From IMG/VR virus record IMGVR_UViG_3300029517_000186: a DNA stretch of 64,000 bases. The stretch is one strand, 5' to 3'. Made by a program: the position numbers and the translations under genes. A model generated the notes under the pieces. It was not told the origin of the DNA and made no database searches. It saw nothing but the letters and a program-made list of their open reading frames with translations. Shown here in pieces: positions 3,145 through 23,407 of this stretch. The stretch is from a virus. Lineage: Duplodnaviria; Heunggongvirae; Uroviricota; Caudoviricetes. The number at the start of each line of letters is the position of its first letter. Positions within the stretch are counted from its first letter, which is position 1.

Positions 3145-3183
3145 TTTTCTCTTTCCTTTCTGTTTTAAATTATATTGTATTAT

Positions 3184-4119: not shown

Positions 4120-4155
4120 ATAATTAGTTCTCCTTTTATTTAGTTATATTTTTAA

Positions 4156-4168
4156 TATGACAGAAAAA
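4156..4168 (-). promoter_or_regulatory. conserved promoter motif (class II: TTATGTAAA-N17-CTGTCATAT) for gene 3184..4119
   Basis: Plus strand reads TATGACAGAAAAA; TTTTACATAAAA box lies 17 nt away. Confidence 0.55.
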
Positions 4169-4317
4169 ATGAATTATTATTTTACATAAAATAATTGATG
4201 TGTATCAAAATAAGTCAGTAACTAAATGTAAATGCCTTTTATTTATTAAAATATCCCGTTTTTGTGTTCTTCTAAGCACTTTATTGGGTATACTATGCCT
4301 TTACTTGGGAAAAATAA

Positions 4318-4571
4318 TAACAATATATTGTACGTTTATTGTTGTATATTAGTTTAATATGTTAACTTTATTAACAATATATAGTTATTTAAGATTTATT
4401 AAAATATAGCTAAGATACAAAAATAATAACAATATATAGATATAAAATATGATTTAATATACATTAAAACTAACAACATTATGTTATAGAATAGAAAAAT
4501 TTGTGCAATAAAATTAACAATATATAGCTAAATATTTAATACATAAATGTAATAATGATAACAATATGTAG
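4318..4571. repeat. iteron-like array: five copies of TAACAATATATAG at 4318, 4372, 4427, 4515 and 4559
   Basis: 13-bp direct repeats spaced 54, 55, 88 and 44 bp (near multiples of 11) inside a 1.3 kb AT-rich non-coding region. Confidence 0.6.
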
Positions 4572-6188: not shown

Positions 6189-7150
6189 GGCTCGGAAAAC
6201 TTCGCTATAATTCGGAATTTATAGCAATAAAGTTTTTCTATGAAACAAAGAACTGGAGTATTAATTGGATGTGTAAACAGCTCGAAATATCAAGAGCTGC
6301 CTATTATAAGTGGTTGAATCGTGAGATACCTGAACAGGAAGCAGAAAATATGAAGTTGGCAGAACTTATAAAGGAGTACGATGAGCGCTTTAATCACATC
6401 CTGGGTTATAGAAGAATGACCTCTTGGATTAATCACTTTAACCATACTGATTATAAACCGAAGAGAGTACATCGAATTATGAAGAAGTTGGGTATTCATT
6501 CAGTCATTAGACGAAAGCAGAAAAAATATACTTCTTCGACACCGGAAGCAGTAGCTGAAAATAGATTAGGCAGAGACTTTTATGCAACTGCACCAAATGA
6601 GAAGTGGACAACTGATGTAACAGAGTTTAAGATTCCAGGTGAGAAAAAGAAACTTTATTTAAGTGCCATTCTTGACTTATATGATAGATACCCTGTTGCG
6701 TATGTTATCAGCACGAGAAATAATAATGAGCTCGTATTTAAAACCTTTGATAAAGCTATTGCCGCAAATCCTGAAGCTAAACCATTATTTCATAGTGATA
6801 GAGGTTTTCAGTATACAAGTAAGGTATTTCAAATGAAACTTAAGGAACATAAGATAGAACAATCTATGTCCAGAGTTGGACATTGTATAGATAATGGACC
6901 TACTGAAGGATTCTGGGGTATCATAAAATCAGAAATGTATCAGATGTACGATATAACAGATGAATCTTCATTAAGATTTGCAATAAAAGATTATATTAGA
7001 TTCTACAGTGAAGAACGACCACAAGACAGGTATCATTGCAAAACGCCACTAGATGTAAGAGCTGAAGCATTATCTACAGCAACACCACAACAGTATCTTA
7101 TTCCTAAAAATAAACGAATTGAAAAATATAAAGAGAAATGGTGTGCATAG
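6185..7150 (+). CDS. IS3-family transposase OrfB (DDE integrase core), made as an OrfAB fusion by -1 frameshift
   Basis: rve-type motifs WTTDVTEF, HSDRGFQYTS, CIDNGPTEGFWGIIKSE; overlaps orfA in the -1 frame. Confidence 0.85.
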   Translation: MRLGKLRYNSEFIAIKFFYETKNWSINWMCKQLEISRAAYYKWLNREIPEQEAENMKLAELIKEYDERFNHILGYRRMTSWINHFNHTDYKPKRVHRIMKKLGIHSVIRRKQKKYTSSTPEAVAENRLGRDFYATAPNEKWTTDVTEFKIPGEKKKLYLSAILDLYDRYPVAYVISTRNNNELVFKTFDKAIAANPEAKPLFHSDRGFQYTSKVFQMKLKEHKIEQSMSRVGHCIDNGPTEGFWGIIKSEMYQMYDITDESSLRFAIKDYIRFYSEERPQDRYHCKTPLDVRAEALSTATPQQYLIPKNKRIEKYKEKWCA

Positions 7151-8587: not shown

Positions 8588-9616
8588 TTACATAAAAGAT
8601 TGTATATTATATCCTTTTCGTCTGAAACGAACTCTAATCTTTTTTATTGCTTTTGATTCAATCTGTCTGATTCGTTCTCTGGAAACATTCCATTCAGTAC
8701 CTATATCTTTTAAAGTTTTAACCTTTGAACCATATCCCATTCTACTCTTAATTACATATAATTCTCTAGGAGTGAGACAATCTTCAACTTCTTTCCAAAG
8801 CAGTTCATTCATTTCTTTTTGAATAATCGTATCTTCAACTTTAGGTTCAGGCACTTCTATATAATCAGCCAAACACGAATCGTCATGGCCTTCATCACTT
8901 TGAATAGGTGCATCTAACGAAACCAATTCATTAAAGCTCTGAATATGTACAAGCATTTCTTTAGTTAAAAGAGGATATCTTTGTTTTACTACATCATATA
9001 ATTCATCAATTGTAGGTTTTCTTTGAAGTTTATTAGTTAAATCCACAAATGTAGTCTTAACAAAAGAATCCTGTTCTCTTACATGTACAGGGAATCTAAC
9101 TAATAAATCATAATTGGCTAATTCTCTATATATACTCTGTCTAATCCAATGAGTTGCATAAGTTGAAAACGCATATCCTAATTTATAATCAAACATTTGT
9201 ATAGCTTTGTATAATCCGAAAATACCGGCCTGACATAAATCATCCATTTCAAAACTTTGCGTTTTAGCTGTAACAGCTTTAGCAATACTGATAACTAAAC
9301 GCATATTAGATAAAATCAATTTTTCTGTTATTTCCTTTTTCTTTTTAGGATGTTTTTTTATCTCTTCAAATAATTTAAGAGTTTCATCTTTGGATAAAAC
9401 CGGATAATCAGCAAATGATTTAATATAATAAGTTATATTATTTTCTAATAATAGTTTCTGTTTTTCATTTGAAATCTCTTTATCATTTAAAATATCGGTA
9501 TAATTATCCTCTGATAAAATATTTATGTTTTCTATTGGTTTATTTGTATCAAATAATTCATCAACATATTCATCTTTATTGTTTTTTTTATTTAATAATA
9601 AATTCTTATCTGCCAT
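8588..9616 (-). CDS. RNA polymerase sigma factor, sigma-70 family
   Basis: Region 2 motifs LVISIAK and YATHWIRQSI; region 4 HTH TLKDIGTEWNVSRERIRQIESKAIKKIR; AGAGGAG RBS. Confidence 0.9.
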   Translation of the reverse strand: MADKNLLLNKKNNKDEYVDELFDTNKPIENINILSEDNYTDILNDKEISNEKQKLLLENNITYYIKSFADYPVLSKDETLKLFEEIKKHPKKKKEITEKLILSNMRLVISIAKAVTAKTQSFEMDDLCQAGIFGLYKAIQMFDYKLGYAFSTYATHWIRQSIYRELANYDLLVRFPVHVREQDSFVKTTFVDLTNKLQRKPTIDELYDVVKQRYPLLTKEMLVHIQSFNELVSLDAPIQSDEGHDDSCLADYIEVPEPKVEDTIIQKEMNELLWKEVEDCLTPRELYVIKSRMGYGSKVKTLKDIGTEWNVSRERIRQIESKAIKKIRVRFRRKGYNIQSFM

Positions 9617-10027: not shown

Positions 10028-10939
10028 TTATTGCTCCTTAATTTCTATATTGATATTTTCAAAACACTTAATTACAAAATAAATTAAACTCATTATGCAG
10101 ACTATTAAAATGCATACCTGTAAATATATATTTGTTATAAAAAACGTAAATGGTATTAATGCCACACAGTTTATTAGAATATGATATAAGCTGCTAAGTT
10201 TAATACCATATTTATCTCTTACAGCACCTAACAAATATCCGCCAAAAGCATATATAGGGAATAAAATAAAATTAAAATGAATTATTCCAAATAAAACTGC
10301 TTGGATTATATTTGCACATAATTTATTGTTGCTTGCTTTATATGCATAGCCATAAATTATATATCTAAAAGTCAATTCCTCAATAATAGGTGCCACAAAA
10401 GTTGCTATTATTGTAGATATAATTGTTTTTATTCCTAAACTTCCATAATCAATATTTGATACATTTACAAAATGCATTTGAATTCCTGAAATAAGCTGCA
10501 ATATTACAGAAGTTAATATGAAACAAAATACAAAATTCCAATTTACTACTAATTTATTTTTCATAAACAAATCTTTTTTATAATTGTAAAATGAGCTTTT
10601 TATACAAATAATGCACATAACAAACATTAATGTATATGTTGATATTGTGTAAATTAATCGAAATCCTTCATAATCTATTTTAGTTGAAATTCCTCCTGCA
10701 TCATTCATATACATATTTAATAGACTGTCTATAAATGTTGCAATAAACATAGAAAATAAAATTATAAAAACAGAAATAATAAATGGAATAAAAATCTTTA
10801 TATACTGTTTTGATTTTGAAAAGAAAGAATTACTTTTCATTTTGTTTTTTGCCATAAAATCCATATAAGAATTTAAATCATGCTTATTTTTTTTATTTCT
10901 TAATTCCTTAATATTACTGTTGTTGTTACTAAGTATCAT
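10028..10939 (-). CDS. CPBP-family (Abi/CAAX, PrsW-like) intramembrane metalloprotease
   Basis: Polytopic; motif 1 EELTFR (APIIEELTFRYII), motif 2 FGIIH, downstream conserved His; GGAGGA RBS. Confidence 0.8.
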   Translation of the reverse strand: MILSNNNSNIKELRNKKNKHDLNSYMDFMAKNKMKSNSFFSKSKQYIKIFIPFIISVFIILFSMFIATFIDSLLNMYMNDAGGISTKIDYEGFRLIYTISTYTLMFVMCIICIKSSFYNYKKDLFMKNKLVVNWNFVFCFILTSVILQLISGIQMHFVNVSNIDYGSLGIKTIISTIIATFVAPIIEELTFRYIIYGYAYKASNNKLCANIIQAVLFGIIHFNFILFPIYAFGGYLLGAVRDKYGIKLSSLYHILINCVALIPFTFFITNIYLQVCILIVCIMSLIYFVIKCFENINIEIKEQ

Positions 10940-11002: not shown

Positions 11003-11036
11003 AAAAATACCGCTGCAATAAACAGCGGTAAAACAT
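11003..11036. terminator. intrinsic terminator
   Basis: TACCGCTG ... CAGCGGTA hairpin between A and T runs. Confidence 0.55.
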
Positions 11037-11051
11037 AAAATAAATATTAAA

Positions 11052-12737
11052 TTAGCATTTGCGTACTATTGAAGGGGCTGACATATCAGGGTTAATGAAT
11101 TTCTTACATAAATGTTCAATTCCAGTTGTTGAATCAAGCCAATATAAATAATCTCCATCAACGTCCACCAGATATTCATTAATAGAATCAAGAACATCGT
11201 TTACTTCGGAAACAGTACAAATAAATCTATATGAAGACTTATTTTTCTTTAAAGGTTTAACAGATTTAACAATAATCTGATATACAGTTTCGTCATCTGA
11301 AGATCTAAAATCATCTACTTGAATTTTCCCTGATAAACATAATTTAGCATCATTAACAAGTAAGTCTCTAATATTTGCATAATCCTTAGAAAAACATACA
11401 CCATTAATAGAACCTGTTTTATCTTCTACCTCAAAAGTTACCCATTCGTATCCATTTCTGTCCTTTCTTATAACAAGATTTTTAATTATACCAGATACAT
11501 CATTAACTTCTGTTGAAATATCAGAAATGGGATCTGTATAAATATTATACTCATCAATTGGATGCCCTGTAATATAAACACCTAACACTTCTTTTTCATC
11601 ATTTAGAATCTGACCTAAATCATCTTCTACATAATCAATATCTATATTTTCAAGATCATCTTCTAAGCTTTCTATAACTGTCTTAGCTGAATTGATACGT
11701 TTAATTATGGAATCCTTAGTTGGCATCTTTTTTGAAGTAACTTGAAAGGAAATATTTTCTTCTGAAATTTTTTCCTTAAACTCATCAAGATCAATATAAT
11801 CTTCCACAAATTCAATAACTTTACTTGCGTTTTCAATAAACTTACTCTTCTCTCTGATTTTCTTGATTGTATCCTGAATTTCTTTCATACAAATCATATC
11901 TAATGATATCATTGTTCTTGTATAACCAAGGCAATCAAAAGCACCTGCTTTAATTAAGGAACTTAATGCTTCTGCATTAATATTTGTTCGTTTGATAAAA
12001 TCCTTAATATCAGAATATTCTCCATTAGCATTTCTATCTTCAACAATTTTAGCTGCTTCTGCTCCAACATTCTTAATATTACTCAGACCATACAAAATAT
12101 TTCCATCTACAACATCACAATGTAAATTTGAAGCATTAATGTCCGGAGGCAATACCTTTACTCCAAAATCAAGAGCATCACTAATATCATCAGCGACTTC
12201 ATCAATCTTATCAGTATGATTTATTACATTTGTAAGATAATAAGCCGGATAATAATACTTAAGAAAAGCAGTCCAATATGATGTAACAGCATAAGCAGAG
12301 GCATGTGACTTATTAAAAGCATACTTAGCAAAATCAACCATCGCATCCCAGATTTTATGAGCAATTTCTTCTGGTATTCCATTTGCAATACAACCTGGTA
12401 CTAATGCTTCATTTTCTTTTTTAGTATCAGCATTGCCATATACAAAAGTGTGTCTTTCAGCATCAATTTCATCCTGATGTTTTTTTGACATAGCTCTACG
12501 GACTAAATCAGAACGCCCCCATGTATATCCTGCTAAATCACGAACAATCTGCATTACCTGTTCCTGATAAACTATCTGTCCATAAGTAGTTGACAAAATT
12601 GGCTCTAATTGAGGACATAAATATTTAATCTTAGATGCATCCTTTTTACCTTCTATGAAATCAGGTATAAACTTTTCAGGACCAGGACGATATAAAGCAT
12701 TCATTGCTATTAAATCTTCAATACCTGTTTTATTCAT
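11052..12737 (-). CDS. dnaE: DNA polymerase III alpha subunit (DnaE), C-terminal part of a split gene
   Basis: IEDLIAMNALYRPGP, YGQIVYQEQVMQIV, FAKYAFNKSHASAYAVTSYWTAFLKYYYP; begins exactly where the upstream ORF 18413..20962 ends in the DnaE alignment. Confidence 0.9.
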   Translation of the reverse strand: MNKTGIEDLIAMNALYRPGPEKFIPDFIEGKKDASKIKYLCPQLEPILSTTYGQIVYQEQVMQIVRDLAGYTWGRSDLVRRAMSKKHQDEIDAERHTFVYGNADTKKENEALVPGCIANGIPEEIAHKIWDAMVDFAKYAFNKSHASAYAVTSYWTAFLKYYYPAYYLTNVINHTDKIDEVADDISDALDFGVKVLPPDINASNLHCDVVDGNILYGLSNIKNVGAEAAKIVEDRNANGEYSDIKDFIKRTNINAEALSSLIKAGAFDCLGYTRTMISLDMICMKEIQDTIKKIREKSKFIENASKVIEFVEDYIDLDEFKEKISEENISFQVTSKKMPTKDSIIKRINSAKTVIESLEDDLENIDIDYVEDDLGQILNDEKEVLGVYITGHPIDEYNIYTDPISDISTEVNDVSGIIKNLVIRKDRNGYEWVTFEVEDKTGSINGVCFSKDYANIRDLLVNDAKLCLSGKIQVDDFRSSDDETVYQIIVKSVKPLKKNKSSYRFICTVSEVNDVLDSINEYLVDVDGDYLYWLDSTTGIEHLCKKFINPDMSAPSIVRKC

Positions 12738-12773
12738 TTTAAATTTCTCCTTTCAATTCATAACTATATAATT

Positions 12774-12786
12774 TATGACAGAAAAT
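12774..12786 (-). promoter_or_regulatory. conserved promoter motif for the dnaE C-part
   Basis: TATGACAGAAAAT, 35 nt upstream of the AAGGAG RBS and ATG. Confidence 0.55.
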
Positions 12787-12789
12787 TAA

Positions 12790-12816
12790 AAAAAGCGTCC
12801 AATTTTGGACGCTTGC
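12790..12816. terminator. intrinsic terminator
   Basis: AGCGTCC ... GGACGCT hairpin. Confidence 0.55.
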
Positions 12817-12823
12817 ATGAATA

Positions 12824-13129
12824 TTAAAAAGAATACTTGTTACATATATTTTCTTTTATATAAGTTATCAAATTTTTAGCATAATCTATTCTGCCTTTTA
12901 ATTTATCAATATCATTAATATCATATGAAACATTACCAGTAATACTAATATAAAAATCATCTTTTATGGTTTTAATTTCAATATCATAATATGGAATCTT
13001 TGGAGTAAAAAAGAATCTTATGACTTTACCTGTTCTTAAATCTCTTCTTAATAGAATTCTATATGTTTTATTATCGTATTCATCTATTATCCATGGACCG
13101 GATTCATATGTTCTAATAAAAGTTACCAT
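12824..13129 (-). CDS. hypothetical protein
   Basis: 101 aa; ATGA overlap with the upstream ORF. Confidence 0.5.
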   Translation of the reverse strand: MVTFIRTYESGPWIIDEYDNKTYRILLRRDLRTGKVIRFFFTPKIPYYDIEIKTIKDDFYISITGNVSYDINDIDKLKGRIDYAKNLITYIKENICNKYSF

Positions 13130-13659
13130 TATCTTACTTCTTCCTCTCTGTTATCTTTATTAATTTCAGTATGAATTACATCTGGCATAATTTTATCTTC
13201 ATCATCTTCTCCGCCTAAATCTAAATCAATATCTGATAGTTCATTTGTGTCAATATTGTTTGTTATATTACTAATATTAACACTTTTACAATTTTGAGTC
13301 ATTGCCTTTATAACATCATCTATAGTTTTAGCATCTCTACCGATTCCGTCAAGATAAAAAGCAGCCGTTACCTGAGCGCAAAAATCTGCGATTATATGTC
13401 TATCAGTTGTTTCAGGGCAAAACTTAGGAACATTATAATATTCACAATCTCTATTGATTTGGGAACACGCAGCTATTGCAGCTTCATGTTTAATTCTCCG
13501 ATTTTTATCCATAGACTGAATAGCTTCTCGTAATTCTTCTCCCTCAAGTGTAGCATATTTAATTGGAGTTGAATAGTTTTGATGATAAACAATCTGTACA
13601 TATTCTCCAAATGCGGCCATATTGTAATTTAACATATCTAAATCATTCTCTATATTCAT
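13129..13659 (-). CDS. hypothetical protein (Cys-containing)
   Basis: 176 aa; its start lies inside a 21-aa micro-ORF (13643..13708) that carries the strong GGAAGGAGAG RBS. Confidence 0.5.
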   Translation of the reverse strand: MNIENDLDMLNYNMAAFGEYVQIVYHQNYSTPIKYATLEGEELREAIQSMDKNRRIKHEAAIAACSQINRDCEYYNVPKFCPETTDRHIIADFCAQVTAAFYLDGIGRDAKTIDDVIKAMTQNCKSVNISNITNNIDTNELSDIDLDLGGEDDEDKIMPDVIHTEINKDNREEEVR

Positions 13660-13747
13660 TATCTGGCGAATTTATTGCATTTACTAATTCCTTAAATTCT
13701 TTAATCATATTTTTTACTCTCCTTCCATTTATTGTTATAATAAATAA

Positions 13748-13760
13748 ATGACAGAAAAAT
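13748..13760 (-). promoter_or_regulatory. conserved promoter motif (variant AATGACAGAAAAA)
   Basis: Upstream of 13129..13659, followed by the terminator at 13765..13795. Confidence 0.45.
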
Positions 13761-13807
13761 AAAATAACAAGTACCTATTAATGGGTACTTGTTATTAAGC
13801 ATTTGTT

Positions 13808-14116
13808 TTAATTTGAATTACTCTTATCATGTACAAAATATAATTTTTGTATTAATTCAGATTTTCTTTTTTCATACTGAAATAAATCATCACATTCACA
13901 TGATAAAAAACTTGCAACAGAATCAATTTGTTTTACAATTTCCTTTACTATACAATCAATGATTTCCTTTGGTAATTCCAATAGTTTAATTAAGCCTAAA
14001 TGCTCCCCTTCATGAATTATGAAAGCTGTATCCGGTGTCAAAACTAGCGTTGCTGTAGAGCCTTCAGAATCAAAATAACAGGATGCCGTATTATTGTTAT
14101 AATAATTAATGCACAT
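13808..14116 (-). CDS. hypothetical protein; possibly N-terminally extended to 14224 through an in-frame TAG
   Basis: 102 aa with no SD of its own; an AAGGAG RBS and ATG at 14224 are in frame, separated by TAG at codon 10. Confidence 0.45.
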   Translation of the reverse strand: MCINYYNNNTASCYFDSEGSTATLVLTPDTAFIIHEGEHLGLIKLLELPKEIIDCIVKEIVKQIDSVASFLSCECDDLFQYEKRKSELIQKLYFVHDKSNSN

Positions 14117-14244
14117 ATCTAATAAGTCATTTTGGACATCGGTTAAATATGAAGCGTTTACTCTACAATTTGTCTTTTCGAATTTAATATTACACTAACC
14201 ATTTGTTAAAATTTCAATTATCATGATTTTCTCCTTAAATATAA

Positions 14245-15126
14245 TTATAGGCAAACAATGTTACCATTTTTAAGTATACTTATAATACTGTTAAGTTCAT
14301 ACAAACCTAATATCTGCTCACTAATTTCATTTAACATATTATCTGATACATTAGCGTTATAAGCATCAAGTTCTACATCTGTTTTTATTGTTGCTAAAAT
14401 TTTTGACAACAAAATATTATCTTCACTATTTATCAAACAAGTTGAAATACTTTTTCCTTTAGACATATTAGATTCAATATCTGAAATATTCATATATATG
14501 TTAAACAAATTTCCATACTTATGTATTAGTTTACTTGCAGTTTTAGGTCCAATACCTGCAGCTCCAGGAATATTATCCGATTTATCTCCCATTAATGCTT
14601 TTACATCAATAAACTGTTTAGGAGTAACGGAATATTCATTCATAATTTCTGCCGGAGTCCAAATATCTTCCGGGTTGTTTGGAACAACTAATGATACTAA
14701 ATCATTACATAATTGCAACAAATCATGATCCGCAGATATGATATTTACTTTATTACCTGCTTTACTTTCAATAGTTGAAATTGTCCCTATAATATCATCT
14801 GCTTCATATCCTTCTTTTTCAATAACACATATATTCATTGTTTTAAGAATAGGGACAATAGCCTGTCTCTGAATCTTAAATTCTTCCGGTGCAGGATCTC
14901 TAGTTGCCTTGTACCCATTATACATTAAATGCCTGAAAGTTGGCTTTGCAGTATCAAATGCAACAATTAATTCATCAGGACTATACTTTTCTTTCATATA
15001 TAGAATTGTATTTAAAGCTCCTTTAATTGCATTAGTCGGAAATCCCTTTGAGGTTTTTAATTCTGGAACACCGTAAAAAGATCTTCTGAGAATGTAATTC
15101 CCATCAAAAATCATAATATTTTTCAT
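14245..15126 (-). CDS. 5'-3' exonuclease / flap endonuclease (Pol I N-terminal domain family)
   Basis: AAGGAG RBS and ATG at 15126 (MKNIMIFDGNYILRRS...); the ORF-track extension past the promoter is rejected; GFPTNAIKG, LIVAFD, helix-hairpin-helix region. Confidence 0.85.
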   Translation of the reverse strand: MKNIMIFDGNYILRRSFYGVPELKTSKGFPTNAIKGALNTILYMKEKYSPDELIVAFDTAKPTFRHLMYNGYKATRDPAPEEFKIQRQAIVPILKTMNICVIEKEGYEADDIIGTISTIESKAGNKVNIISADHDLLQLCNDLVSLVVPNNPEDIWTPAEIMNEYSVTPKQFIDVKALMGDKSDNIPGAAGIGPKTASKLIHKYGNLFNIYMNISDIESNMSKGKSISTCLINSEDNILLSKILATIKTDVELDAYNANVSDNMLNEISEQILGLYELNSIISILKNGNIVCL

Positions 15127-15158
15127 TAATTTTTCTCCTTTATAATTTTTAATATATT

Positions 15159-15171
15159 TATGACAGAAAAA
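15159..15171 (-). promoter_or_regulatory. conserved promoter motif for the FEN gene
   Basis: TATGACAGAAAAA. Confidence 0.55.
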
Positions 15172-15234
15172 AAGCAGGAAACATAAGTCTCCCGCTTTCA
15201 AAAAATCTTATTCAGTTATGAAAAATTAAAATAT

Positions 15235-15492
15235 TCAATTTCTTTCACTTAAGAATTTTTCCACAGCATCTTCAACAGCTTCATATTCAGTAAGACCGTT
15301 ACCTTCTGCGTAAGTATCATAAGCTGCTTCACCAATATCAATATAATCATTCTCAGTAATATCAGAATGATACTGAGGCTGAATAATCTCTTTAGCTGTA
15401 TTAATCATCCATGTTGAAACAAATTCCTTATGAGCCTTATAAATCTCATCATCTGTTAATTTTATTTCCTTACCATTTCTTATTATTGTCAT
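15235..15492 (-). CDS. small acidic protein
   Basis: 85 aa, D/E-rich; AAGGAG RBS. Confidence 0.55.
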   Translation of the reverse strand: MTIIRNGKEIKLTDDEIYKAHKEFVSTWMINTAKEIIQPQYHSDITENDYIDIGEAAYDTYAEGNGLTEYEAVEDAVEKFLSERN

Positions 15493-15504
15493 TATTTATT
15501 CTCC

Positions 15505-15774
15505 TTAGTTGTTATTATTTTCGTCAGAATTATCATATATGACGCTTTCAATTATATTAACTGCTGTATCTGCATAAATAACTTCCTCGCCATCATCGTT
15601 AGAATATCCATCGTCATCATATGTACTTTCAGTCAGCCAACTTGCCTCAGAAACTTCTTTAGAAGCTTCTGAAATCTCACTTATTAAAGTATTTTTAATG
15701 ATATTCAACATATTCTTTTCTGTTTCTGATTCTGAAGTTTTAATAAAGTCATTTATAATATTTAAAGTTTTCAT
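15505..15774 (-). CDS. small highly acidic protein (DNA-mimic candidate)
   Basis: 89 aa; DDDGYSNDDGEE and a poly-N tail. Confidence 0.5.
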   Translation of the reverse strand: MKTLNIINDFIKTSESETEKNMLNIIKNTLISEISEASKEVSEASWLTESTYDDDGYSNDDGEEVIYADTAVNIIESVIYDNSDENNNN

Positions 15775-15789
15775 GAAATCCCTTTCTTT

Positions 15790-16248
15790 TTACAATGTAC
15801 TTTTTATAACTTTAACAGGTTCTAATCTGCCATTTATAAATGAAGCCGTTCCTAATGTTTTGTCAGTATTTTCAGAAGATTCAAAGAAATCATTTGCCAT
15901 ATCCTCATTTGAAAAATATGAATATTCTCCTGAATTGTCTCCACTATCTGACTCATATCCTATCCATACATAATATAATGAAAAGCTTTCAAGGCTATCA
16001 CTGTCTTCAGGGATTTCTCCATCCCAATCATCATTTTCTTTTATATCTTCTTCTAATTCATATTTAAACTCGCTCATCATATTAGGATCGTCTAAATATA
16101 CACATTTATGGTAATTATCAACTGCAATTGCGCATTTCTGTCCTAATGGATGCAATAAATAATTCTTAGGCACTTCCAATAATGCTTTTATCATATCATT
16201 TACTGTTTCTAAGTTGTTTTCCTTAATTTCAAATGCGTTAGTTTTCAT
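15790..16248 (-). CDS. acidic protein
   Basis: 152 aa, D/E/S-rich; AAGGAG RBS; promoter at 16285. Confidence 0.55.
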   Translation of the reverse strand: MKTNAFEIKENNLETVNDMIKALLEVPKNYLLHPLGQKCAIAVDNYHKCVYLDDPNMMSEFKYELEEDIKENDDWDGEIPEDSDSLESFSLYYVWIGYESDSGDNSGEYSYFSNEDMANDFFESSENTDKTLGTASFINGRLEPVKVIKSTL

Positions 16249-16284
16249 AATTTTATTCTCCTTTTTAAATTTTATAATAATACA

Positions 16285-16297
16285 ATGACAGAAAAAT
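16285..16297 (-). promoter_or_regulatory. conserved promoter motif (ATGACAGAAAAA)
   Basis: Upstream of the acidic-protein operon, followed by the terminator at 16299..16330. Confidence 0.5.
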
Positions 16298-16332
16298 AAA
16301 AAAACTGGCTACTAATAGTAACCAGTTTAATT

Positions 16333-17322
16333 TTATAACTTTACAATTTTCTCATTGATTTTCATTCTAAATGTATTGATTTTGTCTATATCTGGCTCAT
16401 CTGGCAATACAGAGTTTTTACATGCATTTTCAAACTTATTCTTGTATTCATCTACTATTTCAAAAAACTGTTTATTAGGGATTCCATTTTCATCAAGATA
16501 TACACCATTTCTAATATCCATCAACAAATCATGTTCTTTAATTCTTTTCGTTTGAATTTTCCCTTCAGAAACTAAATCAATTCCCATCATATACAATCTA
16601 AGTAAATGCATACTATGTTTTGCTATTTTACCATGATTTAATGCATGTTCATTCCTTTTACTTGTTTTCCGGTAATCTCTTAAAGTGTTATTAAATTCTG
16701 AAAGCATTCCTAACAAATCTTCCATTGAACACTGTGTTGCAATAATATTACATTTGATTTTGCCATCAACCAAATAAAAAGACACATTATTTTCATCTAA
16801 ATTGTACTTATCATTCATTTTCTTGGACATATTATTAAGCACTCCAGAAATGTGTCTATTTAATTCTTCCTCAGTTAAAGCAGCGTTGGTCTTCTGCTGC
16901 ATACGGTATAACTGTTGTAATGCATATTCACTAAATGTATTAATACATCTATTCGATAAAAAAATATCTTTATTTTTTAATAAAAGCTCCCCAATTTCAT
17001 TTTTATAAATATAATCATCTGTATCTAATCCTAAAAGTTCAATAGTGTTTGGATTGCATTTTGTTAATAAATCAATAATTTTGTCAAAACTATAAATAGT
17101 TGTATCTGTATTAACATCTACAAAATTTTCAAAATCATTACCTAACAAGATATCTTCTTTTCTTCTAACAGCAACTCCTCTTATATCAATATCGCTTTCT
17201 GGAAGATTTGTCCCATATGCTCTGCTACCACCTAATCCAAGTATACAAATATTCTTATCTAAATTTTGATTTTCCTTTAAAAATGAATACTCAGGCATAT
17301 TTAATATATTTTTATTTATCAT
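16333..17322 (-). CDS. Pol-beta superfamily nucleotidyltransferase (PF10127-like)
   Basis: G[GS]x9-13DhD motif GLGGSRAYGTNLPESDIDIRGV; C-terminal H..RL helix KHSMHLLRL. Confidence 0.7.
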   Translation of the reverse strand: MINKNILNMPEYSFLKENQNLDKNICILGLGGSRAYGTNLPESDIDIRGVAVRRKEDILLGNDFENFVDVNTDTTIYSFDKIIDLLTKCNPNTIELLGLDTDDYIYKNEIGELLLKNKDIFLSNRCINTFSEYALQQLYRMQQKTNAALTEEELNRHISGVLNNMSKKMNDKYNLDENNVSFYLVDGKIKCNIIATQCSMEDLLGMLSEFNNTLRDYRKTSKRNEHALNHGKIAKHSMHLLRLYMMGIDLVSEGKIQTKRIKEHDLLMDIRNGVYLDENGIPNKQFFEIVDEYKNKFENACKNSVLPDEPDIDKINTFRMKINEKIVKL

Positions 17323-17346
17323 ATTCTCTTTCCTATCCTTGTAATT

Positions 17347-17401
17347 GAACTACTCGCAACCGGCTATTGTCGGTTGGAGTTTTCTTGCTTAATTGCGATA
17401 A
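17347..17401 (-). repeat. copy 1 of the 55-nt structured repeat element (between ORF 17412..18044 and the nucleotidyltransferase gene)
   Basis: Plus strand GAACTACTCGCAACCGGCTATTGTCGGTTGGAGTTTTCTTGCTTAATTGCGATAA. Confidence 0.7.
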
Positions 17402-17411
17402 TATCATTCTT

Positions 17412-18044
17412 TTATTTTCTAACAATAGCAGAAAAATCTACTGACTGTAAAATCTTAATGATATCTTCTACTTCAGGACTTCTCCATGCAGTCATAGCAT
17501 AGGTATGAGCGTACTCATCATAATGATAATGATTTGCCTTTAGGTGTTCAGCGGCTGCCTTTTCTGTTAAAAACATTGTGTTTTCATAAATTTTATCTCT
17601 ATATGCATAACAGGTGAAAGTATATCTGCCATAATTATGCTCATTCAACCAAGTCTTTAAATCATCAAGATCAGTTAAGTATTCCTCATAATCATTATCT
17701 TCTTTTGATGTGATATAATATCCATCATATTCTTTTGAAATAACCCAAGAGTCACCGTTTTCTTCAAATTCCTTATTAAAAAATACAATTGCATCATCAA
17801 TATTATCAGCAACTTCTTCTACAGCTTCATTATCGATTAGTGTTACACCGTCTTCATATCCTTCTGGAACAATACACTTTTCTTTTCCCATAATAACCCA
17901 AAATCGAGGATCAGCTTGTCCTACATGGTCCTGTGTATTTAATTCATGCTGCAAATCAGACAAAAATTTGATTTCTTTATCTGTAATTTTATGTTTCTCT
18001 ACTGTGTCTGGATGGTATTGTAAATGTTCATGAAATATTGCCAT
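17412..18044 (-). CDS. hypothetical protein
   Basis: 210 aa; AAGGAG RBS. Confidence 0.6.
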   Translation of the reverse strand: MAIFHEHLQYHPDTVEKHKITDKEIKFLSDLQHELNTQDHVGQADPRFWVIMGKEKCIVPEGYEDGVTLIDNEAVEEVADNIDDAIVFFNKEFEENGDSWVISKEYDGYYITSKEDNDYEEYLTDLDDLKTWLNEHNYGRYTFTCYAYRDKIYENTMFLTEKAAAEHLKANHYHYDEYAHTYAMTAWRSPEVEDIIKILQSVDFSAIVRK

Positions 18045-18071
18045 ATTTTTCTCCTTAAACTTTATTTATTT

Positions 18072-18308
18072 TTATTCAGTATAGTATTGGAATGCACAAT
18101 CATACATTTGTTTCCCAGTTATCTGATCTGTGAATATAGGACAATGCCAATCCTTATCAAATCCTGTTTCCTTACACCATTCATTAATAACTCTAGTAGT
18201 AATTGGTGTGACAAACACATATAAATCTGATTCATGGTGAAAGATATCTTTTTCAGAATATCCAGCCTCAATAAGCCGTTGCATAAGAGTTTTATTATTT
18301 TTCTCCAT
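18072..18308 (-). CDS. hypothetical protein
   Basis: 78 aa; AAGGAG RBS; promoter at 18347. Confidence 0.55.
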   Translation of the reverse strand: MEKNNKTLMQRLIEAGYSEKDIFHHESDLYVFVTPITTRVINEWCKETGFDKDWHCPIFTDQITGKQMYDCAFQYYTE

Positions 18309-18346
18309 AATATTGTTCTCCTTTATTTATTATAATTTAAAAGAAA

Positions 18347-18359
18347 TATGACAGAAAAA
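18347..18359 (-). promoter_or_regulatory. conserved promoter motif
   Basis: TATGACAGAAAAA, then terminator hairpin AACGCA ... TGCGTT (18357..18386). Confidence 0.55.
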
Positions 18360-18412
18360 ACGCACATCATAATGACATGCGTTTTAATACAAAATATTCA
18401 ATTAACTATTCA

Positions 18413-20962
18413 CTATGAACATAACTTCTTAAGGTTATTCCTCATACCGGCTGACTCAAACTGGAAAACATTCTTAGTTCTTCCTTTTGCATATACTTCT
18501 TTGTATACCTTATCAGCTTTAGGACCCTCTAATGGAATATTCATTACATCAATTACTTCTCCTGTATCTCTCTGAATCATTCTGAGTGTGTCAGTAATAA
18601 TTGTAAGAGTTTTTAATCCAAGAAAATCCATTTTTAATAATCCATTAGCTTCGCACTGAATCATGTCCATTTCTGTAGTTTTAATTCCCTTTTTTCCATC
18701 TCTAATAGGAATATAATCAGTAACATCATTACTATCATAAATAATAACACCTGCGGCATGTTGTCCGTATGTCGTAAGCATACCTTCACAATGAGCTGCA
18801 ATATTAAGAATAGAAATAGCATCTGGATTACTATTATATTCATCCTTTAAGAAATCTAACAAAGAAACGCTGTCCTGAATATTAATGCCTAATTCATCAA
18901 CCTTATTAGTATCTTTCATGCCAACAATATCTTCAAAATTAGTTGCTTTAGCAGGCACTTTCTTACGAATCTGATCTCCTAAAGATAAGAATTTCTTTTC
19001 ATCATCATAAGCTTTCTTTCCATAATATCTTGCAGCATCTCTGATAGCACCTTTAGCCTGCTGCCTTGATTCTGTAATAATTCCAACAACAGCTTCACTA
19101 CCATATTTAGCTCTTACATACTCAATTGTCTTTTCTCTTACTCCAAGAGCAAGATCGCTATCGATATCAGGCATACTTACTCTTTCTGGATTTAAGAATC
19201 GTTCAAAAATCAGATTATACTTAAATGGATCAATTCCGGTAATACCAAGTAAATATGTAACCAATGAACCGGCACCTGAACCTCTTCCAATGCCTATTCC
19301 AATTCCGGTATTATAATTGTGAGCCTTAACATACTCTTTTGCACCTTCAATTGTTAAAGGTACTTCTGATAGTTTATCCATAGGTACTAATCCACAAATT
19401 CTTCCATATTCCAGGAAGTCCTTTACAATTAAATGATAATCGGCAAAGCCCATCTGAATGATAATATTAAGTTCGTATTCCATTCGTTTCTGATGTTCTT
19501 CATCCCATCCTTTTCCGTTAGGATATCTCCAATTAATTCCCTTAATTGCTTCAGATCTTAATAATTCGTTTGAGTCCTTGTTCTTATCAAATACTGGATA
19601 ATGATTAGATTTTTCTGGAATATAAGCACATCTTTTTCCAATTACATTTAAGTTATTAAGTGCTTCTGCAACCTGATCATCTGTTAATATAGCTGATAAG
19701 GCCTGAGCAAGTTCGTAAGGTGTTTTTACATATAACTCTTTATCTGATTCCGACTCACTTATCTTAATAAATCTTAAAAATTTTGCTACATTACGCATAT
19801 CAATACTTCTATCAGAATTATCTGCCATATGTGCATCATTAGCAGCAACTAATGGGATATTATGCTTCCTTGCTAACTGAGCTAACACAGGATATGTCCT
19901 GCTTTCCATTTCAAGACCATGATTCTGAACTTCAATGTAATAATTACCTGCTCCAAAAATTTCCTGATAAAAAAGCATTGTCTTTTCTGCTTCAGACATT
20001 AATTCTATTGGGCTTTTCTTTAATGATTCATAATGCTGTATCTTATTTTCATGATTAATATATTCCTCTACCTTAAGACTTATATCCTTTAACTCGGCTT
20101 TCTTAGCATTAACTAATTTTCTGACATTAGGAATTTTATCTTTAGCTTCCAGAATTTTATTATTTATCTCCTCATATTCATTAATCAGTTTAATAAGCTC
20201 TGGATCATCATCATTTAAACACTTCCTTGCATCTCTTAATTTTCTTGAGATCTGTGTTCTTTCTGATTTAAGTTCCTTGGAATCACGAATATTAATTAAT
20301 TCATCTAAATCTGCCGATACCTTTTCAAATTCATCTTTAGCTGAAAGATATTCTTTATCATCAGGACTTATACAATCACGTATAACTAGCTCGTCTTTTT
20401 CAGTAGTATGCTGCTGTGCTTTTCTTTCTCTGTTAATCATTTTATCCAAAACATCATCTGATAATAATTGCAGAGCTGGTGCACCCGAAACGCAAGCTGA
20501 AGTTGCTATTATATCACCGTTAAAGTTATATTTCTTTAAATCTGATATTGTAATAACAGGCTTTCCCATTCTTTTTTCAGAAGCCTTAGAATTTAACTTA
20601 TCAATAATATGCTTGCCTCTTTCTGAAGTGGCTAACATAATCATATGGCCAATCTGCTCATTTATCTTAAATGGTGGCACTTCAATATAAGCCTCTACGC
20701 CATAAATGATATTAAAAGGATGTTCCTCAGTACTTATTTTCTTAGCGTAATCAATACATGTTTGCATTGCTGAAAATGATGCATGGTCCGTAACAGCAAA
20801 TTTAGTATATCCTGCATTAAATGCAGCATCTAAATAACTTTTAGGTTCATCTACGGCATCAAACAAAGAGCCTCCTGGATGGTTATGTTCACACACTGTA
20901 ACTCCTGACTCAATAACCTTTTTTGTTAATTCTCCAATTTTTACATGTTCAAACATTGACAT
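18413..20962 (-). CDS. dnaE: DNA polymerase III alpha subunit (DnaE), N-terminal part (PHP plus palm) of a split gene
   Basis: PHP VCEHNHPGG ... FAVTDHASF; palm GRGSGAGSLVTYLLGITGIDPFKYNLIFERFLNPERVSMPDIDSD; ends ...NVFQFESAGMRNNLKKLCS at the junction where the C-part resumes. Confidence 0.9.
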   Translation of the reverse strand: MSMFEHVKIGELTKKVIESGVTVCEHNHPGGSLFDAVDEPKSYLDAAFNAGYTKFAVTDHASFSAMQTCIDYAKKISTEEHPFNIIYGVEAYIEVPPFKINEQIGHMIMLATSERGKHIIDKLNSKASEKRMGKPVITISDLKKYNFNGDIIATSACVSGAPALQLLSDDVLDKMINRERKAQQHTTEKDELVIRDCISPDDKEYLSAKDEFEKVSADLDELINIRDSKELKSERTQISRKLRDARKCLNDDDPELIKLINEYEEINNKILEAKDKIPNVRKLVNAKKAELKDISLKVEEYINHENKIQHYESLKKSPIELMSEAEKTMLFYQEIFGAGNYYIEVQNHGLEMESRTYPVLAQLARKHNIPLVAANDAHMADNSDRSIDMRNVAKFLRFIKISESESDKELYVKTPYELAQALSAILTDDQVAEALNNLNVIGKRCAYIPEKSNHYPVFDKNKDSNELLRSEAIKGINWRYPNGKGWDEEHQKRMEYELNIIIQMGFADYHLIVKDFLEYGRICGLVPMDKLSEVPLTIEGAKEYVKAHNYNTGIGIGIGRGSGAGSLVTYLLGITGIDPFKYNLIFERFLNPERVSMPDIDSDLALGVREKTIEYVRAKYGSEAVVGIITESRQQAKGAIRDAARYYGKKAYDDEKKFLSLGDQIRKKVPAKATNFEDIVGMKDTNKVDELGINIQDSVSLLDFLKDEYNSNPDAISILNIAAHCEGMLTTYGQHAAGVIIYDSNDVTDYIPIRDGKKGIKTTEMDMIQCEANGLLKMDFLGLKTLTIITDTLRMIQRDTGEVIDVMNIPLEGPKADKVYKEVYAKGRTKNVFQFESAGMRNNLKKLCS

Positions 20963-20997: not shown

Positions 20998-21010
20998 ATG
21001 ACAGAAAAAA
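20998..21010 (-). promoter_or_regulatory. conserved promoter motif (CATGACAGAAAAA)
   Basis: Upstream of the dnaE N-part, followed by the terminator at 21012..21039. Confidence 0.5.
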
Positions 21011-21073
21011 TACACCAGTTGAGATTAGTCAACTGGTGTATAAATGCACATTATTTAATTGTTAATTATTTTA

Positions 21074-22225
21074 TTATTCTACCTTAACAACGTCTCCTCT
21101 ATCTGATGTTTCAGTAATAACAATATACTTGATTTCCATATTGTCGTTTGCAAGAGCAATTCTTGTTACATTATCTTCCTTACTTGTATCGACAATCCAA
21201 TCATATCCTTCAACTGCAGACATTATCTTTGAATCAGTAATGATTTTATCAACATACTCTCCAATCATAATTCTGTCTTCAAGTCTGATAAAATCAGCAC
21301 TATTCCAACCAATTGAAACAGATTTAATATGTGAAGGGATATTAATGCTATTGAGTCTCATTAATGTACCACCATTAAGAGCAATCATTTCTGCTTTAAT
21401 ATGATCCATTTCGATTAATTCCTTAGTATTAGTAATTGTATCTAAATGATAATCACAATTATTGCATTCATCATAATCTCCACAATCATTTTCGCAGTCA
21501 TAACCACAATCACAATCAGGATTATAATAATTATTATCACATACCTGCTCTGTATATTCAATGACCCATGTAGGTACATTCATTGAATTTCTTACAGTAA
21601 TGACATTATTTATTGGTGCGTCAAGCATTAAATAACTTGAAATATAATTCTTTGCACCATCATAAACGATAATTTCAGCATTATCAAAATATTCAGCGAA
21701 AATATCTTTTCCATTACAATCCTTCTTTGTTTCAAAGTGTGTATAGGAAGTCTTTAGTATCACATATTTGTCACATACACCTATAACTTCCGGCATTGGA
21801 ATTGAAACTGGAATAAGTTTCTTAAACTTATCCTCATCCGGCTTATAAGCAAATAAATCAATATAATCATCATGTTCTGTTGTGTTTTCTCTAGGCAATA
21901 CAGCTAATAAAAGCTTACCTGGAACAGATGTAACGATACTCTTAATTACCAGTGAACCCTGCTGTGTAGCAGCAACACCATCCTTAAGTAAAATTCCGTC
22001 TTCTACTGAATATCCATCTGGAATATCTGGAATATTAGGATTGCTGATAAGTCTAAAAGCAATTGCGTTAGATGATGATATCATAACAGATATATCCTCG
22101 TTTACTTCACCATTTTCTAAAAGACAAGCCGTTCCTACGCCATCGGTAACAGATGTAATTAAATACTGTCTGTTGTCAACCTTGTTTAATACTGTTACAT
22201 TTTCTAAAATTTTGTTTTCTCTCAT
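21074..22225 (-). CDS. hypothetical protein, tandem paralogue A (Cys-rich insertion)
   Basis: 383 aa; shares N- and C-terminal blocks with 22358..23407; insert CDNNYYNPDCDCGYDCENDCGDYDECNNCDYH. Confidence 0.6.
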   Translation of the reverse strand: MRENKILENVTVLNKVDNRQYLITSVTDGVGTACLLENGEVNEDISVMISSSNAIAFRLISNPNIPDIPDGYSVEDGILLKDGVAATQQGSLVIKSIVTSVPGKLLLAVLPRENTTEHDDYIDLFAYKPDEDKFKKLIPVSIPMPEVIGVCDKYVILKTSYTHFETKKDCNGKDIFAEYFDNAEIIVYDGAKNYISSYLMLDAPINNVITVRNSMNVPTWVIEYTEQVCDNNYYNPDCDCGYDCENDCGDYDECNNCDYHLDTITNTKELIEMDHIKAEMIALNGGTLMRLNSINIPSHIKSVSIGWNSADFIRLEDRIMIGEYVDKIITDSKIMSAVEGYDWIVDTSKEDNVTRIALANDNMEIKYIVITETSDRGDVVKVE

Positions 22226-22357: not shown

Positions 22358-23407
22358 TTACTCTATGGTTATAATGTCTCCTCTATCTCTTGTTTCAGAA
22401 ATAACAAGAGTCTTTATCTCCATAGTATTTGTATTAGCAAGAGAAATTCTTGTAACATGATCCTTAGATGTAATATCCACAATTACATTATAACCTGCAA
22501 GCTCAGCAACTATCTTATCTGGGATCTTATATGTGATATCATTAATATACCACTTGCCTGAAGAAGCTTTAATAAGACTTGCGTTATATCCCTTTGAAAT
22601 TGATTCTGGAACACTGTCAATTGCTGTTGTCTTATAAAGACTTAATGAATGGCCTTCAGAAGTAATAAATCTTAATGTAATATAATCATCTTCCTTGATA
22701 ATTCCGTCAGAATCGACTACTGTATCTGCTTCAATTGCGAAAATTGTTTCATTAGGTGCCTTAACAGAATCTACAGCCTTAATTGGCTCTGCAAAAGAAA
22801 CATGATCAACAACTGCATCAGACATTACATCATATAACATGATTGCTGCAGCATCAAAGATATTATCTGTTTCAATAGTTCCATCTTCAAGCTTCTTATC
22901 CTTAGTATAAGTTCTTGAATATGTCATATATAACTGCATCTTATTCTCAGAAGAAGCAATGATTGTAACTTCTGGAATAGATCTTCTGATAAGCTTATTA
23001 AACTTATCTGACTCAACTGTATATGACATAATATCGAAATAACCTTCTCTTGGTTCTCTTGGTTCAACAGATAAAATAAGTCTTCCTGCAACACCTGTAA
23101 TAATACTATTAATTACCAGTGAACCCTGTTCCGTAGCAGGGACTCCATTCTTAAGCAAAATTCCGTTTTCTACAGTATATCCAGTTGGAACATCTGGGAT
23201 ATTAGGATCATCAATCAACTTGTAAGCTATTGCATTATTAGCTGTAATTACTGCAGTAACCGAAGCATCAAGTGAACCATCCTCCTTAATTAACTTGGCT
23301 GTTCCTTTAATGGAATCACCTGAACCATCAACATTAATTATCTGATAATTCTTACGGTCTACCTTGTTTAATACTGTTACATTAGTCTTAATCTTGTTTA
23401 TTCTCAT
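22358..23407 (-). CDS. hypothetical protein, tandem paralogue B
   Basis: 349 aa; NVTVLNKVD, IPDVPTGYTVENGILLKNGV, C-terminal VTRISLANTNTMEIKTLVISETRDRGDIITIE. Confidence 0.6.
   Translation of the reverse strand: MRINKIKTNVTVLNKVDRKNYQIINVDGSGDSIKGTAKLIKEDGSLDASVTAVITANNAIAYKLIDDPNIPDVPTGYTVENGILLKNGVPATEQGSLVINSIITGVAGRLILSVEPREPREGYFDIMSYTVESDKFNKLIRRSIPEVTIIASSENKMQLYMTYSRTYTKDKKLEDGTIETDNIFDAAAIMLYDVMSDAVVDHVSFAEPIKAVDSVKAPNETIFAIEADTVVDSDGIIKEDDYITLRFITSEGHSLSLYKTTAIDSVPESISKGYNASLIKASSGKWYINDITYKIPDKIVAELAGYNVIVDITSKDHVTRISLANTNTMEIKTLVISETRDRGDIITIE

Follow-up and report, generated by a model that had tools for sequence, protein, structure and literature searches.

A DnaE-type replicative DNA polymerase encoded in two intein-free pieces, predicted to assemble non-covalently, in a large mobile element of human-gut Lachnospiraceae

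Several replicative DNA polymerases are known to be encoded in pieces. In the Aeromonas phages 44RR and 25, a B-family polymerase is encoded by genes 43A and 43B, which are separated by an intercistronic spacer in the former phage and by an inserted seg gene in the latter, and the two products co-purify and are active (Petrov, Ratnayaka & Karam 2010, reviewed in PMC2988022). Another split B-family polymerase is that of the chimallivirus PhiKZ, whose DNAP-N and DNAP-C form a stable 1:1 complex of known structure, the core replicase (PMC13648687). Within the C family, the full-length DnaE genes reported to be naturally split rely, as far as we found, on split inteins; besides the cyanobacterial split-intein DnaE, 'fractured' DnaE genes with a homing endonuclease between the halves occur in marine metagenomes, and Dassa et al. 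proposed a model of break, endonuclease loss and genomic uncoupling (PMC2677866). A minimal Pol III alpha, split into two stand-alone proteins from distant genes, was predicted in jumbo phages of group 2.2, beside a B-family main polymerase (Iyer et al. 2021, PMC7824862). Here we analyzed a stretch of 64,000 nucleotides from the IMG/VR virus record IMGVR_UViG_3300029517_000186 (hereafter the window), in which dnaE is divided into two open reading frames (ORFs), termed the N-part and the C-part. We estimate at roughly 85% the probability that the products of the two ORFs are the subunits of a single replicative polymerase of the DnaE type (C family), for which non-covalent assembly is predicted from sequence comparison and structure models; a working two-subunit enzyme, not a broken gene, is the most likely reading of the locus. 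As far as found in the literature and in annotated phage and plasmid collections, it would be the first full-length DnaE-type replicase that occurs naturally in two pieces without an intein.

Like genes 43A and 43B, the locus is a two-cistron replicative polymerase without an intein, and the two Aeromonas arrangements recur here, since a relative of the window (L171) mirrors the spacer of 44RR while the window mirrors the inserted gene of phage 25. However, the enzyme belongs to the C and not to the B family, the gap in the window contains no homing endonuclease and gaps reach ten genes or 18 kb, and the split, known here from sequence alone, is kept across a much deeper clade and at two sites. 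As in split-intein and fractured DnaE, the same enzyme is found in two pieces, sometimes at one locus with a gene in between and sometimes far apart, and the model of Dassa et al. parallels the series of arrangements in the split clade. Trans-splicing restores one polypeptide in the split-intein systems, whereas here there is no Hint sequence, and no free-standing homing endonuclease lies in the block between the halves. PhiKZ shows that two separately encoded polymerase halves of a large phage can work; the present enzyme differs in its family, in the position of the split and in being predicted only. The jumbo-phage module comprises the palm and the template-binding core without PHP, HhH and OB domains and is cut between the NTP-binding and the metal/DNA-binding subdomains, whereas in the window a full DnaE architecture is interrupted in the fingers, and no other polymerase was seen beside it. 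Judged by its sequence, the locus has two features of genes in pieces, a kind that includes gp43A/B, NrdA of Aeh1 and DNAP-N/DNAP-C of PhiKZ: two cistrons, each with a stop, ribosome-binding site (RBS) and start of its own, meet where homologs run on without a break, and both pieces are retained and constrained.

The earlier note on this DNA had described a dnaE gene that is cleanly broken by a 5.7-kb block of ten genes and carries no intein remnants, and Pfam and PDB alignments agree with this description; both ORFs are on the minus strand. In the N-part (849 amino acids), Pfam identified PHP at residues 26-175 (E = 2.3e-18) and DNA_pol3_alpha up to residue 782, while in the C-part (561 amino acids) HHH_6 was found at residues 192-275 and OB at residues 422-496. 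Positions 1-59 of the DNA_pol3_finger profile correspond to N-part residues 785-847, about the first third of the fingers, and positions 63-162 to C-part residues 5-102, and the Pfam fingers domain itself is divided between the two chains. In alignments to solved structures, residue 645 of Mycobacterium tuberculosis DnaE1 (5lew) is matched by both N-part residue 847 and C-part residue 1, Taq residues 679 and 686 are matched by N-part residue 844 and C-part residue 5, and Escherichia coli residues 624 and 629 (4jom; 628 instead of 629 in 2hnh) by N-part residue 847 and C-part residue 6. The N-part ends in ...LKKLCS (about 647 in M. tuberculosis numbering), with a tail of 2-5 residues past the last DnaE-aligned residue, and the C-part begins with MNKTGIEDL (645), with a lead of 0-5 residues before the next aligned one; the loop length differs by at most 0-3 residues at the junction, and no essential residue is missing. 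The junction has no spare residues that could hold an intein, and Pfam gave no match to Hint or intein families in either half. At gathering thresholds, no Rfam family was found in the whole 64-kb window. From the N-part stop to the C-part start there are 5675 bp with ten minus-strand ORFs, and the same ten genes were called between the halves in identical metagenomic contigs. The order of fingers, HhH and OB is complete only when both ORFs are combined, and unlike in PolC there is no internal exonuclease domain; on the sequence level the polymerase is of the C family, DnaE type, with all defining features present in the combined ORFs.

The catalytic aspartates are intact in the N-part, namely D599 and D601 (MPDIDSD) and D779 (KMDFLG), which align with PDIDTD and MDFLGL of Taq, and so are the nine PHP metal ligands (H26, H28, D35, H60, E90, H106, C157, D376 and H378); all 12 residues are invariant in 47 aligned homologs. 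In the C-part, the residues of YRPGP, YQEQVM, RRAMSKK and FNKSH are invariant or nearly so among 24 split-clade homologs. The nucleotide pocket of M. tuberculosis DnaE1 involves Gln638, Arg667, Pro668 and His787 (PMC8922275). In alignments to 7pu7 (N-part 552-847 to 374-651, C-part 1-277 to 651-924), Gln638 corresponds to N-part Q834 (FQFES) and Arg667/Pro668 to C-part R17/P18 (YRPGP), while His787 was equated with C-part H145 (FNKSH) by motif correspondence only and not by an alignment. The active site is therefore composite, because the metal ligands are in the N-part and the pocket residues are split over both parts, and a nucleotide pocket that draws on both halves would make the enzyme an obligate non-covalent heterodimer. 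The cut would lie about 140 residues upstream of the cyanobacterial DnaE split site, which we take to be beside FNKSH. An AlphaFold2 model of N-part residues 471-849 covalently joined to C-part residues 1-330 (mean predicted local distance difference test, pLDDT, 91.6; predicted template modelling score, pTM, 0.87) superposed across the junction with M. tuberculosis, Taq and E. coli DnaE (TM-score 0.73-0.76, 34-36% identity), and its similarity to PolC was lower (TM-score about 0.6, 17% identity). A coiled-coil insertion of about 190 residues had been noted within the PHP region; the AlphaFold2 model of the N-part (pLDDT 91.9) confirms a helical hairpin, including a 61-residue helix, and places it at residues 168-336, which reduces its length to about 165 residues. 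Fused relatives have about 1370-1400 residues, equal to the combined length of the N-part and the C-part, and on this ground the PHP insertion would predate the split.

A check of related genomes, which the earlier note had suggested, revealed the same split in L171, L081, L090 and L083/L088. C-part homologs (43-70% identity, listed in order of identity to the query) nearly all have 536-658 residues and no palm domain, and N-part homologs (47-78% identity) mostly have 808-893 residues. About 20 of the latter stop within one residue of the same alignment column (...LKKLxx), at which fused relatives continue with P-x-x-IEDI, and split-clade C-parts begin 1-12 residues ahead of IEDIIAMNALYRPGP; relatives with as little as about 50% identity keep the identical break point. 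The distance between the halves varies greatly. In L171 (55% identity to the window for the N-part and 50% for the C-part), they are separated by 125 nt containing a stop, a hairpin, CTGTCAT, an RBS and ATG; in L081 (69% and 64%) by three genes, encoding a flap endonuclease (FEN), a DUF3232 protein and a 107-residue ORF; in L090 (73% and 63%) by eight genes (4.0 kb) including FEN; and in the window and its near-identical copies by ten genes. In L083/L088 (55% and 53%), a single 110.6-kb contig, the N gene (47417-49891) and the C gene (27295-28974) are 18.4 kb apart, and MCM-like, HNH, UvrD, PARP, AAA, ParA and Rep3 genes, part of them on the opposite strand, lie in the interval. Because L171 has the same split with the 125-nt spacer only, the comparison dates the split before the ten-gene block, which is not its cause.

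Besides this cut (site A), a second one (site B) was detected about 30 residues downstream in L087 (P0033 and its 865-residue partner), P0141 and P0143, which are more distant members. In the joined model, helices 368-378 and 385-395 flank the six-residue loop that holds site A, and site B lies in the next loop (412-420). The site-B N-part terminates in ...RPGPLDSIPEYIEGALKARAN before its stop, and the site-B C-part begins with MIFKETDQDIALLDDILGDTYG... An explanation of P0141 and P0143 as truncated fused proteins was rejected, as the L087 sequence shows a genuine second split site there. The fused P0127, P0139 and P0145 are in the same identity range as the split forms. Both halves are present wherever the contig is long enough (the window, L001, L002, L081, L082, L090, L171, L087, L083+L088 and L172-174), and the identities of the N-part and the C-part to the window drop in parallel across genomes. 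Several split-clade C-parts (602-658 residues; P0012, P0016, P0017, P0018, P0021, P0022, P0026 and P0030) have N-terminal extensions of 40-90 residues before IELIIAMNALYRPGP, which bear no relation to the DnaE sequence that fused proteins have there and may be a docking or regulatory segment gained recently. The C-part is always followed by a gene for an Rce1-like (CPBP/CAAX) membrane protease (10028-10939(-) in the window; also in L081, L083, L086, L090 and L171), and in the window, L086 and L090 this gene is followed by a small ORF and then by a sigma-factor gene. This synteny is steadier than the linkage between the two halves, and the position of the N-part varies.

In annotated collections, megablast of the 9.9-kb region against phages gave no match, and tblastn against phages and PLSDB plasmids retrieved relatives of at most 40% identity only (closest 35-40%) and no member of the split clade. 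In the best-matching phage and plasmid records that were checked, and in 81 further loci, dnaE is contiguous in one frame. A scan of genome contigs, driven by generic DnaE peptides (YAFNKSHA), found only contiguous chromosomal dnaE of Lachnospiraceae at about 40% identity and no split locus.

The ratio of nonsynonymous to synonymous substitution rates (dN/dS), another check proposed by the earlier note, was calculated for each half against the window. For the N-part, the rough values were 0.09 (L090), 0.14 (L081), 0.12 (L087) and 0.21 (L088), and for the C-part 0.15 (L090), 0.16 (L081), 0.39 (L087) and 0.38 (L083), while the comparison of L090 with L081 gave 0.11 for the N-part and 0.09 for the C-part. 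In this way, the N-part ranges from 0.09 to 0.21, and the C-part from 0.09 to 0.16 in the closer relatives and from 0.38 to 0.39 in the two most distant ones. No disrupted ORF was found among the compared halves, and these comparisons point clearly to purifying selection on both halves.

Two other observations concern dnaE in relatives. In L171, TnsA-like and TnsB-like (Tn7-type) transposition genes (2652-5851) are located directly upstream of the split dnaE. In strains with 99% identity (L001 at 2627-3566, and L174), a 940-nt insertion is located between P598 and D599 of MPDIDSD, at a point equivalent to 19168/19169 of the window (codons 598/599), and contains a 172-residue HNH-type ORF. The last base of the exon is U and that of the insertion is G, and GGGCGU close to the 5' end of the insertion can pair with AUGCCU of the exon; by this splice-site logic the insertion fits a group I intron, and Rfam gave no family for the L001 insertion at E <= 0.1. 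Gene callers split the N-part bearing it into products of 613 and 252 residues, which are common in the protein cluster and occur on more than 150 contigs.

In addition to the two halves, the block between them and its expression signals were analyzed (Table 1). The 9-mer TTCTGTCAT occurs 24 times in the window (0.94 expected), 22 times on the coding strand; nearly all copies have a GGAG-type RBS and a start codon about 20-40 nt downstream, and several come directly after a hairpin and T-run (sites include 4157-4165, 12775-12783, 20998-21006, 31012-31020 and 58270-58278). It precedes the N-part, the C-part and four units of the block, and is also found in L001, L002, L090 and L171, being common in the closest relatives. 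Most likely it acts as a promoter, or some other 5' control element, proper to the mobile element, and the sigma factor encoded at 8588..9616 may recognise it. Terminator-like hairpins are also more numerous than expected (10 vs 2.1), and each half has its own terminator, promoter-like motif, RBS, stop and start codon. The view of the earlier note that each unit of the block has its own promoter thus holds as far as the repeated motif before the four units is concerned, while a generic sigma-70 promoter scan did not exceed chance (68 matches vs 68.9 in shuffled sequences).

Table 1. Coordinates of the two dnaE ORFs, their putative expression signals and the units between them in the window.
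Feature	Position	Strand	Content	Evidence
DnaE N-part	18413..20962	-	PHP with ~165-residue helical hairpin, palm, thumb, first ~60 fingers positions; terminus ...FQFESAGMRNNLKKLCS then stop	Pfam, PDB alignments
DnaE C-part	11052..12737	-	Fingers remainder (IEDLIAMNALYRPGP, YQEQVM, RRAMSKK, FNKSH), HhH/beta-binding domain, helical linker, OB fold	Pfam, PDB alignments
N-part upstream signals	20998..21041	-	Hairpin 21041..21010, TTCTGTCAT 21006..20998, then AAAGGAGG and ATG	
C-part upstream signals	12775..12814	-	Hairpin 12814..12793, TTCTGTCAT 12783..12775, then AAAGGAGA and ATG	
Terminator-like hairpin downstream of C-part	11008..11030	-		
Block cassette 1	16333..18356	-	TTCTGTCAT 18356..18348; three ORFs: 78 residues (18072..18308), 210 residues, acidic (17412..18044, phrog_3205), 329-residue RlaP/Pol-beta-type nucleotidyltransferase (16333..17322); closing terminator 16328..16302	
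Block cassette 2	15235..16293	-	TTCTGTCAT 16293..16285; small acidic ORFs of 152, 89 and 85 residues; closing terminator 15199..15170	
Block cassette 3	13808..15168	-	TTCTGTCAT 15168..15160; FEN (14245..15126, 293 residues) and 102-residue ORF (13808..14116); closing terminator 13796..13763	Pfam 5_3_exonuc_N, 5_3_exonuc (FEN)
Block cassette 4	12824..13756	-	TTCTGTCAT 13756..13748; DUF3232 gene (13129..13659) and 101-residue ORF (12824..13129)	

Several block genes had been named by the earlier note. Its Pol-beta nucleotidyltransferase was recovered as an RlaP/Pol-beta-type protein, and its flap endonuclease was identified by Pfam as a 5'-3' exonuclease / flap endonuclease, with the start moved from an upstream TTG to the ATG at 15126; the acidic proteins, counted as three, are in fact more numerous, as seven of the ten block proteins have an isoelectric point below 5.1. 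The gene content of the block differs among the window, L090 and L081, and only FEN is common to all three (62% identity in L090 and 60% in L081). None of the three ORFs of cassette 1 matched the blocks of L090 or L081, and in cassette 2 only the 85-residue ORF has a homolog, in L090; the DUF3232 gene and the 101-residue ORF are common to L081, and the six remaining block ORFs were unmatched in the two blocks. After a 1-nt frameshift close to its 5' end (13659-13710), the DUF3232 gene restarts at an internal ATG (176 residues), while in identical contigs it encodes 193 residues starting with MIKEFKELVNAINSPDNEY; the frameshift reflects either a polymorphism between strains or an error in sequencing. 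No match to HNH, GIY-YIG, LAGLIDADG or Vsr homing endonucleases was found in the ten block proteins by Pfam, or by PHROGs in those encoded at 16333..17322 and 17412..18044. Neither a recombinase among the ten genes nor direct or inverted repeats bordering the block, apart from the general promoter motif, were found. By its sequence organization, the block is an accreted set of four terminator-motif-bounded cassettes with variable cargo and not one insertion. Such units resemble the promoter-early stem-loop (PeSL) cassettes of T4-type phages, in which a terminator hairpin and a promoter precede variable genes and for which gene shuffling was proposed (PMC2839356, PMC4122927). Between the DnaE halves, too, a hairpin and a repeated motif precede variable genes; however, the motif (TTCTGTCAT) and the host lineage differ, and recombination is deduced here only from variable gene content. 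By analogy with PeSL, the cassettes may mediate insertion at this locus.

The window has low GC content (about 28%) and nearly all of its genes are on the minus strand; its carrier is a large low-GC mobile element of human-gut Lachnospiraceae. The C-part is found in NCBI in a metagenome-assembled genome of Lachnospira pectinoschiza, IMG/VR lists near-identical contigs as viral, and the exact C-part protein occurs in 232 blocks of a public assembly collection, on contigs of up to 458 kb. Other genes of the window encode two UvrD-like helicases, a RecJ-like protein, RecA, a DnaG-type zinc ribbon, a sigma-70-type factor, a DNA methylase and two CAAX-protease-like proteins. The genes for a Mob_Pre relaxase, full RecA, a bifunctional PBP (transglycosylase plus transpeptidase), and GGDEF, HD and PARP-like proteins (62781-63986(+), 38545-39639(-), 53007-55340(-) and 55619-56752(-)) are unusual cargo for a viral listing in IMG/VR. 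Recognisable virion genes were not found within the 64-kb window, and relatives carry Rep3 and ParA; the element may be a huge phage, a phage-plasmid or a megaplasmid. An IS3-family transposase pair (helix-turn-helix ORF and rve integrase-core ORF, 5505-7150(+)) lies in a stretch with higher GC content (0.33) and reversed GC skew. The pair is absent at the counterpart in L172-L174, in which the distance from the sigma factor to the following DUF5688 is about 1.3 kb (about 2.7 kb in L174), and it has the look of a recent insertion in the window copy. Directly upstream of the N-part, two paralogous ORFs (21074-22225 and 22358-23407(-); 383 and 349 residues) share an N-terminal LNKVD..Y.I and end in ...ETSDRGDVVKVE and ...ETRDRGDIITIE, one of them with a Cys/Asp-rich insert (CDCGYDCENDCGDYDECNNCDYH); neither had a Pfam or PHROG match.

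A possible history of the two-subunit polymerase begins with an ancestral full-length gene of about 1400 residues that would already have carried the helical PHP insertion. Fission would have taken place in the fingers, in a surface loop that links the FQFES helix to the IEDxIAxNALYRPGP helix, and its minimal form would be a spacer of about 125 nt with stop codon, terminator hairpin, the promoter-like motif CTGTCAT, RBS and ATG. This two-cistron spacer might then have served as a landing site for further terminator-promoter-bounded cassettes, with FEN arriving first and variable cargo later, until ten genes were present in the window and the halves were 18 kb apart in some lineages. Each half would be transcribed from its own copy of the common promoter-like motif of the element, and after translation the first ~60 fingers residues, those of the N-part, would pack onto the fingers of the C-part, by which the composite active site would be rebuilt. 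The N-part would supply the metal-binding D599, D601 and D779 together with Q834, and the C-part R17/P18 (YRPGP), the RRAMSKK motif and H145 (FNKSH), while the intact PHP domain is probably for proofreading. A broader proposal is that C-family replicases tolerate, and here repeatedly underwent, intein-free fission beside the nucleotide pocket, with a small mobile terminator-promoter cassette, inserting into a coding loop without a homing endonuclease, as the agent and the gap as a later hotspot for FEN and cargo. We put this proposal forward as a tentative one, which is rather doubtful at present.

The earlier note had left two choices, a polymerase of two non-covalently assembled polypeptides or a recent insertion that inactivated the gene. 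The former is favoured by the conserved break, the purifying selection, the intact residues and the separate signals of each half, all read from sequence. In the latter, an intact dnaE would have been broken recently by the 5.7-kb block and would be decaying, with host polymerases replicating the element. Contiguous dnaE in the closest annotated phage and plasmid relatives (35-40% identity) and the frameshifted DUF3232 gene would fit such decay, but both ORFs remain intact around the same split down to about 50% identity with dN/dS of 0.09-0.2, the catalytic and PHP residues are all invariant, and the identical sequence is widespread in metagenomes. Moreover, the split exists with gaps ranging from 125 nt in L171 to three genes in L081, eight in L090 and 18.4 kb in L083/L088 and so was not made by the block, and the constraint together with the parallel divergence excludes a recent inactivating insertion; a pseudogene is thus hardly credible. 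It is also very improbable that a single chain is restored, be it by a split intein, by RNA trans-splicing or a giant intron, or by regulated DNA excision as in the skin and nifD elements. The use of split inteins by the previously described naturally split full-length DnaE genes (PMC2677866) speaks for restoration, as does the intron-like insertion with an HNH ORF at the catalytic site of a 99%-identical strain, which shows that mobile elements invade dnaE in this clade. However, a split intein needs about 100 + 35 residues, for which there is no space, and had no Hint match; the window has no Rfam intron; the ten block genes include no recombinase, and direct repeats beyond the promoter motif do not flank the block. 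In L083/L088, where the 18.4 kb hold Rep3, ParA and opposite-strand genes, excision would lose maintenance functions.

The halves could also function independently: the N-part, joined by a partner from the host, might be a PHP exonuclease or a polymerase core, and the C-part might bind DNA or the clamp as a stand-alone HhH/OB factor. The halves are up to 18 kb apart and predicted to be separately transcribed, the C-part is labelled in NCBI merely as an OB-fold protein, some C-parts have novel N-terminal extensions, and the synteny of the C-part with the Rce1-like gene and the sigma factor is conserved while the N-part varies in position. Against these points, both halves occur on every sufficiently long contig examined and diverge in parallel, the pocket-lining fingers residues are invariant in the C-part although the catalytic aspartates sit in the N-part, and half a fingers domain would be unlikely to fold alone; we regard independent functions as unlikely. 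Some points weigh against a two-subunit polymerase. The support for assembly and activity is all comparative and structural-predictive; the AlphaFold2 model was made from a covalently joined chain with an alignment of fused homologs and shows compatibility, not association; dS was saturated in all comparisons, which makes the dN/dS values rough; the role of TTCTGTCAT is deduced from its position only; and among the genes of the window no clamp, clamp loader or tau partner could be recognised. A neighbour-joining tree, calculated without support values, groups the site-A splits in one clade, within which the fused P0127 is nested, and leaves the site-B forms and the remaining fused ones outside. 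P0127 has a linker three residues longer than other fused forms, which hints weakly at a re-fusion, and the sequences may reflect either one fission followed by re-fusion or several fissions.

For the two-subunit polymerase, several consequences can be considered. The two evolution-tested cut sites in the fingers, beside FQFES and YRPGP, are useful for the engineering of split C-family polymerases and for studies of how the fingers fold and close. The clade also provides a staged record of gene fission, from fused forms to a 125-nt spacer, to three, eight and ten intervening genes and to 18 kb. It is a trap for annotation, in which the halves go under the names of OB-fold protein or truncated Pol III alpha and a pseudogene flag is likely. 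As the element is very common in human-gut metagenomes, its mode of replication is of ecological interest. If cassette-driven fission is true, it would be a general path, not recognised before, by which one essential gene turns into a dispersed multi-subunit enzyme, and the split may serve to separate the dosage or timing of the catalytic half from that of the DNA- and clamp-binding half.

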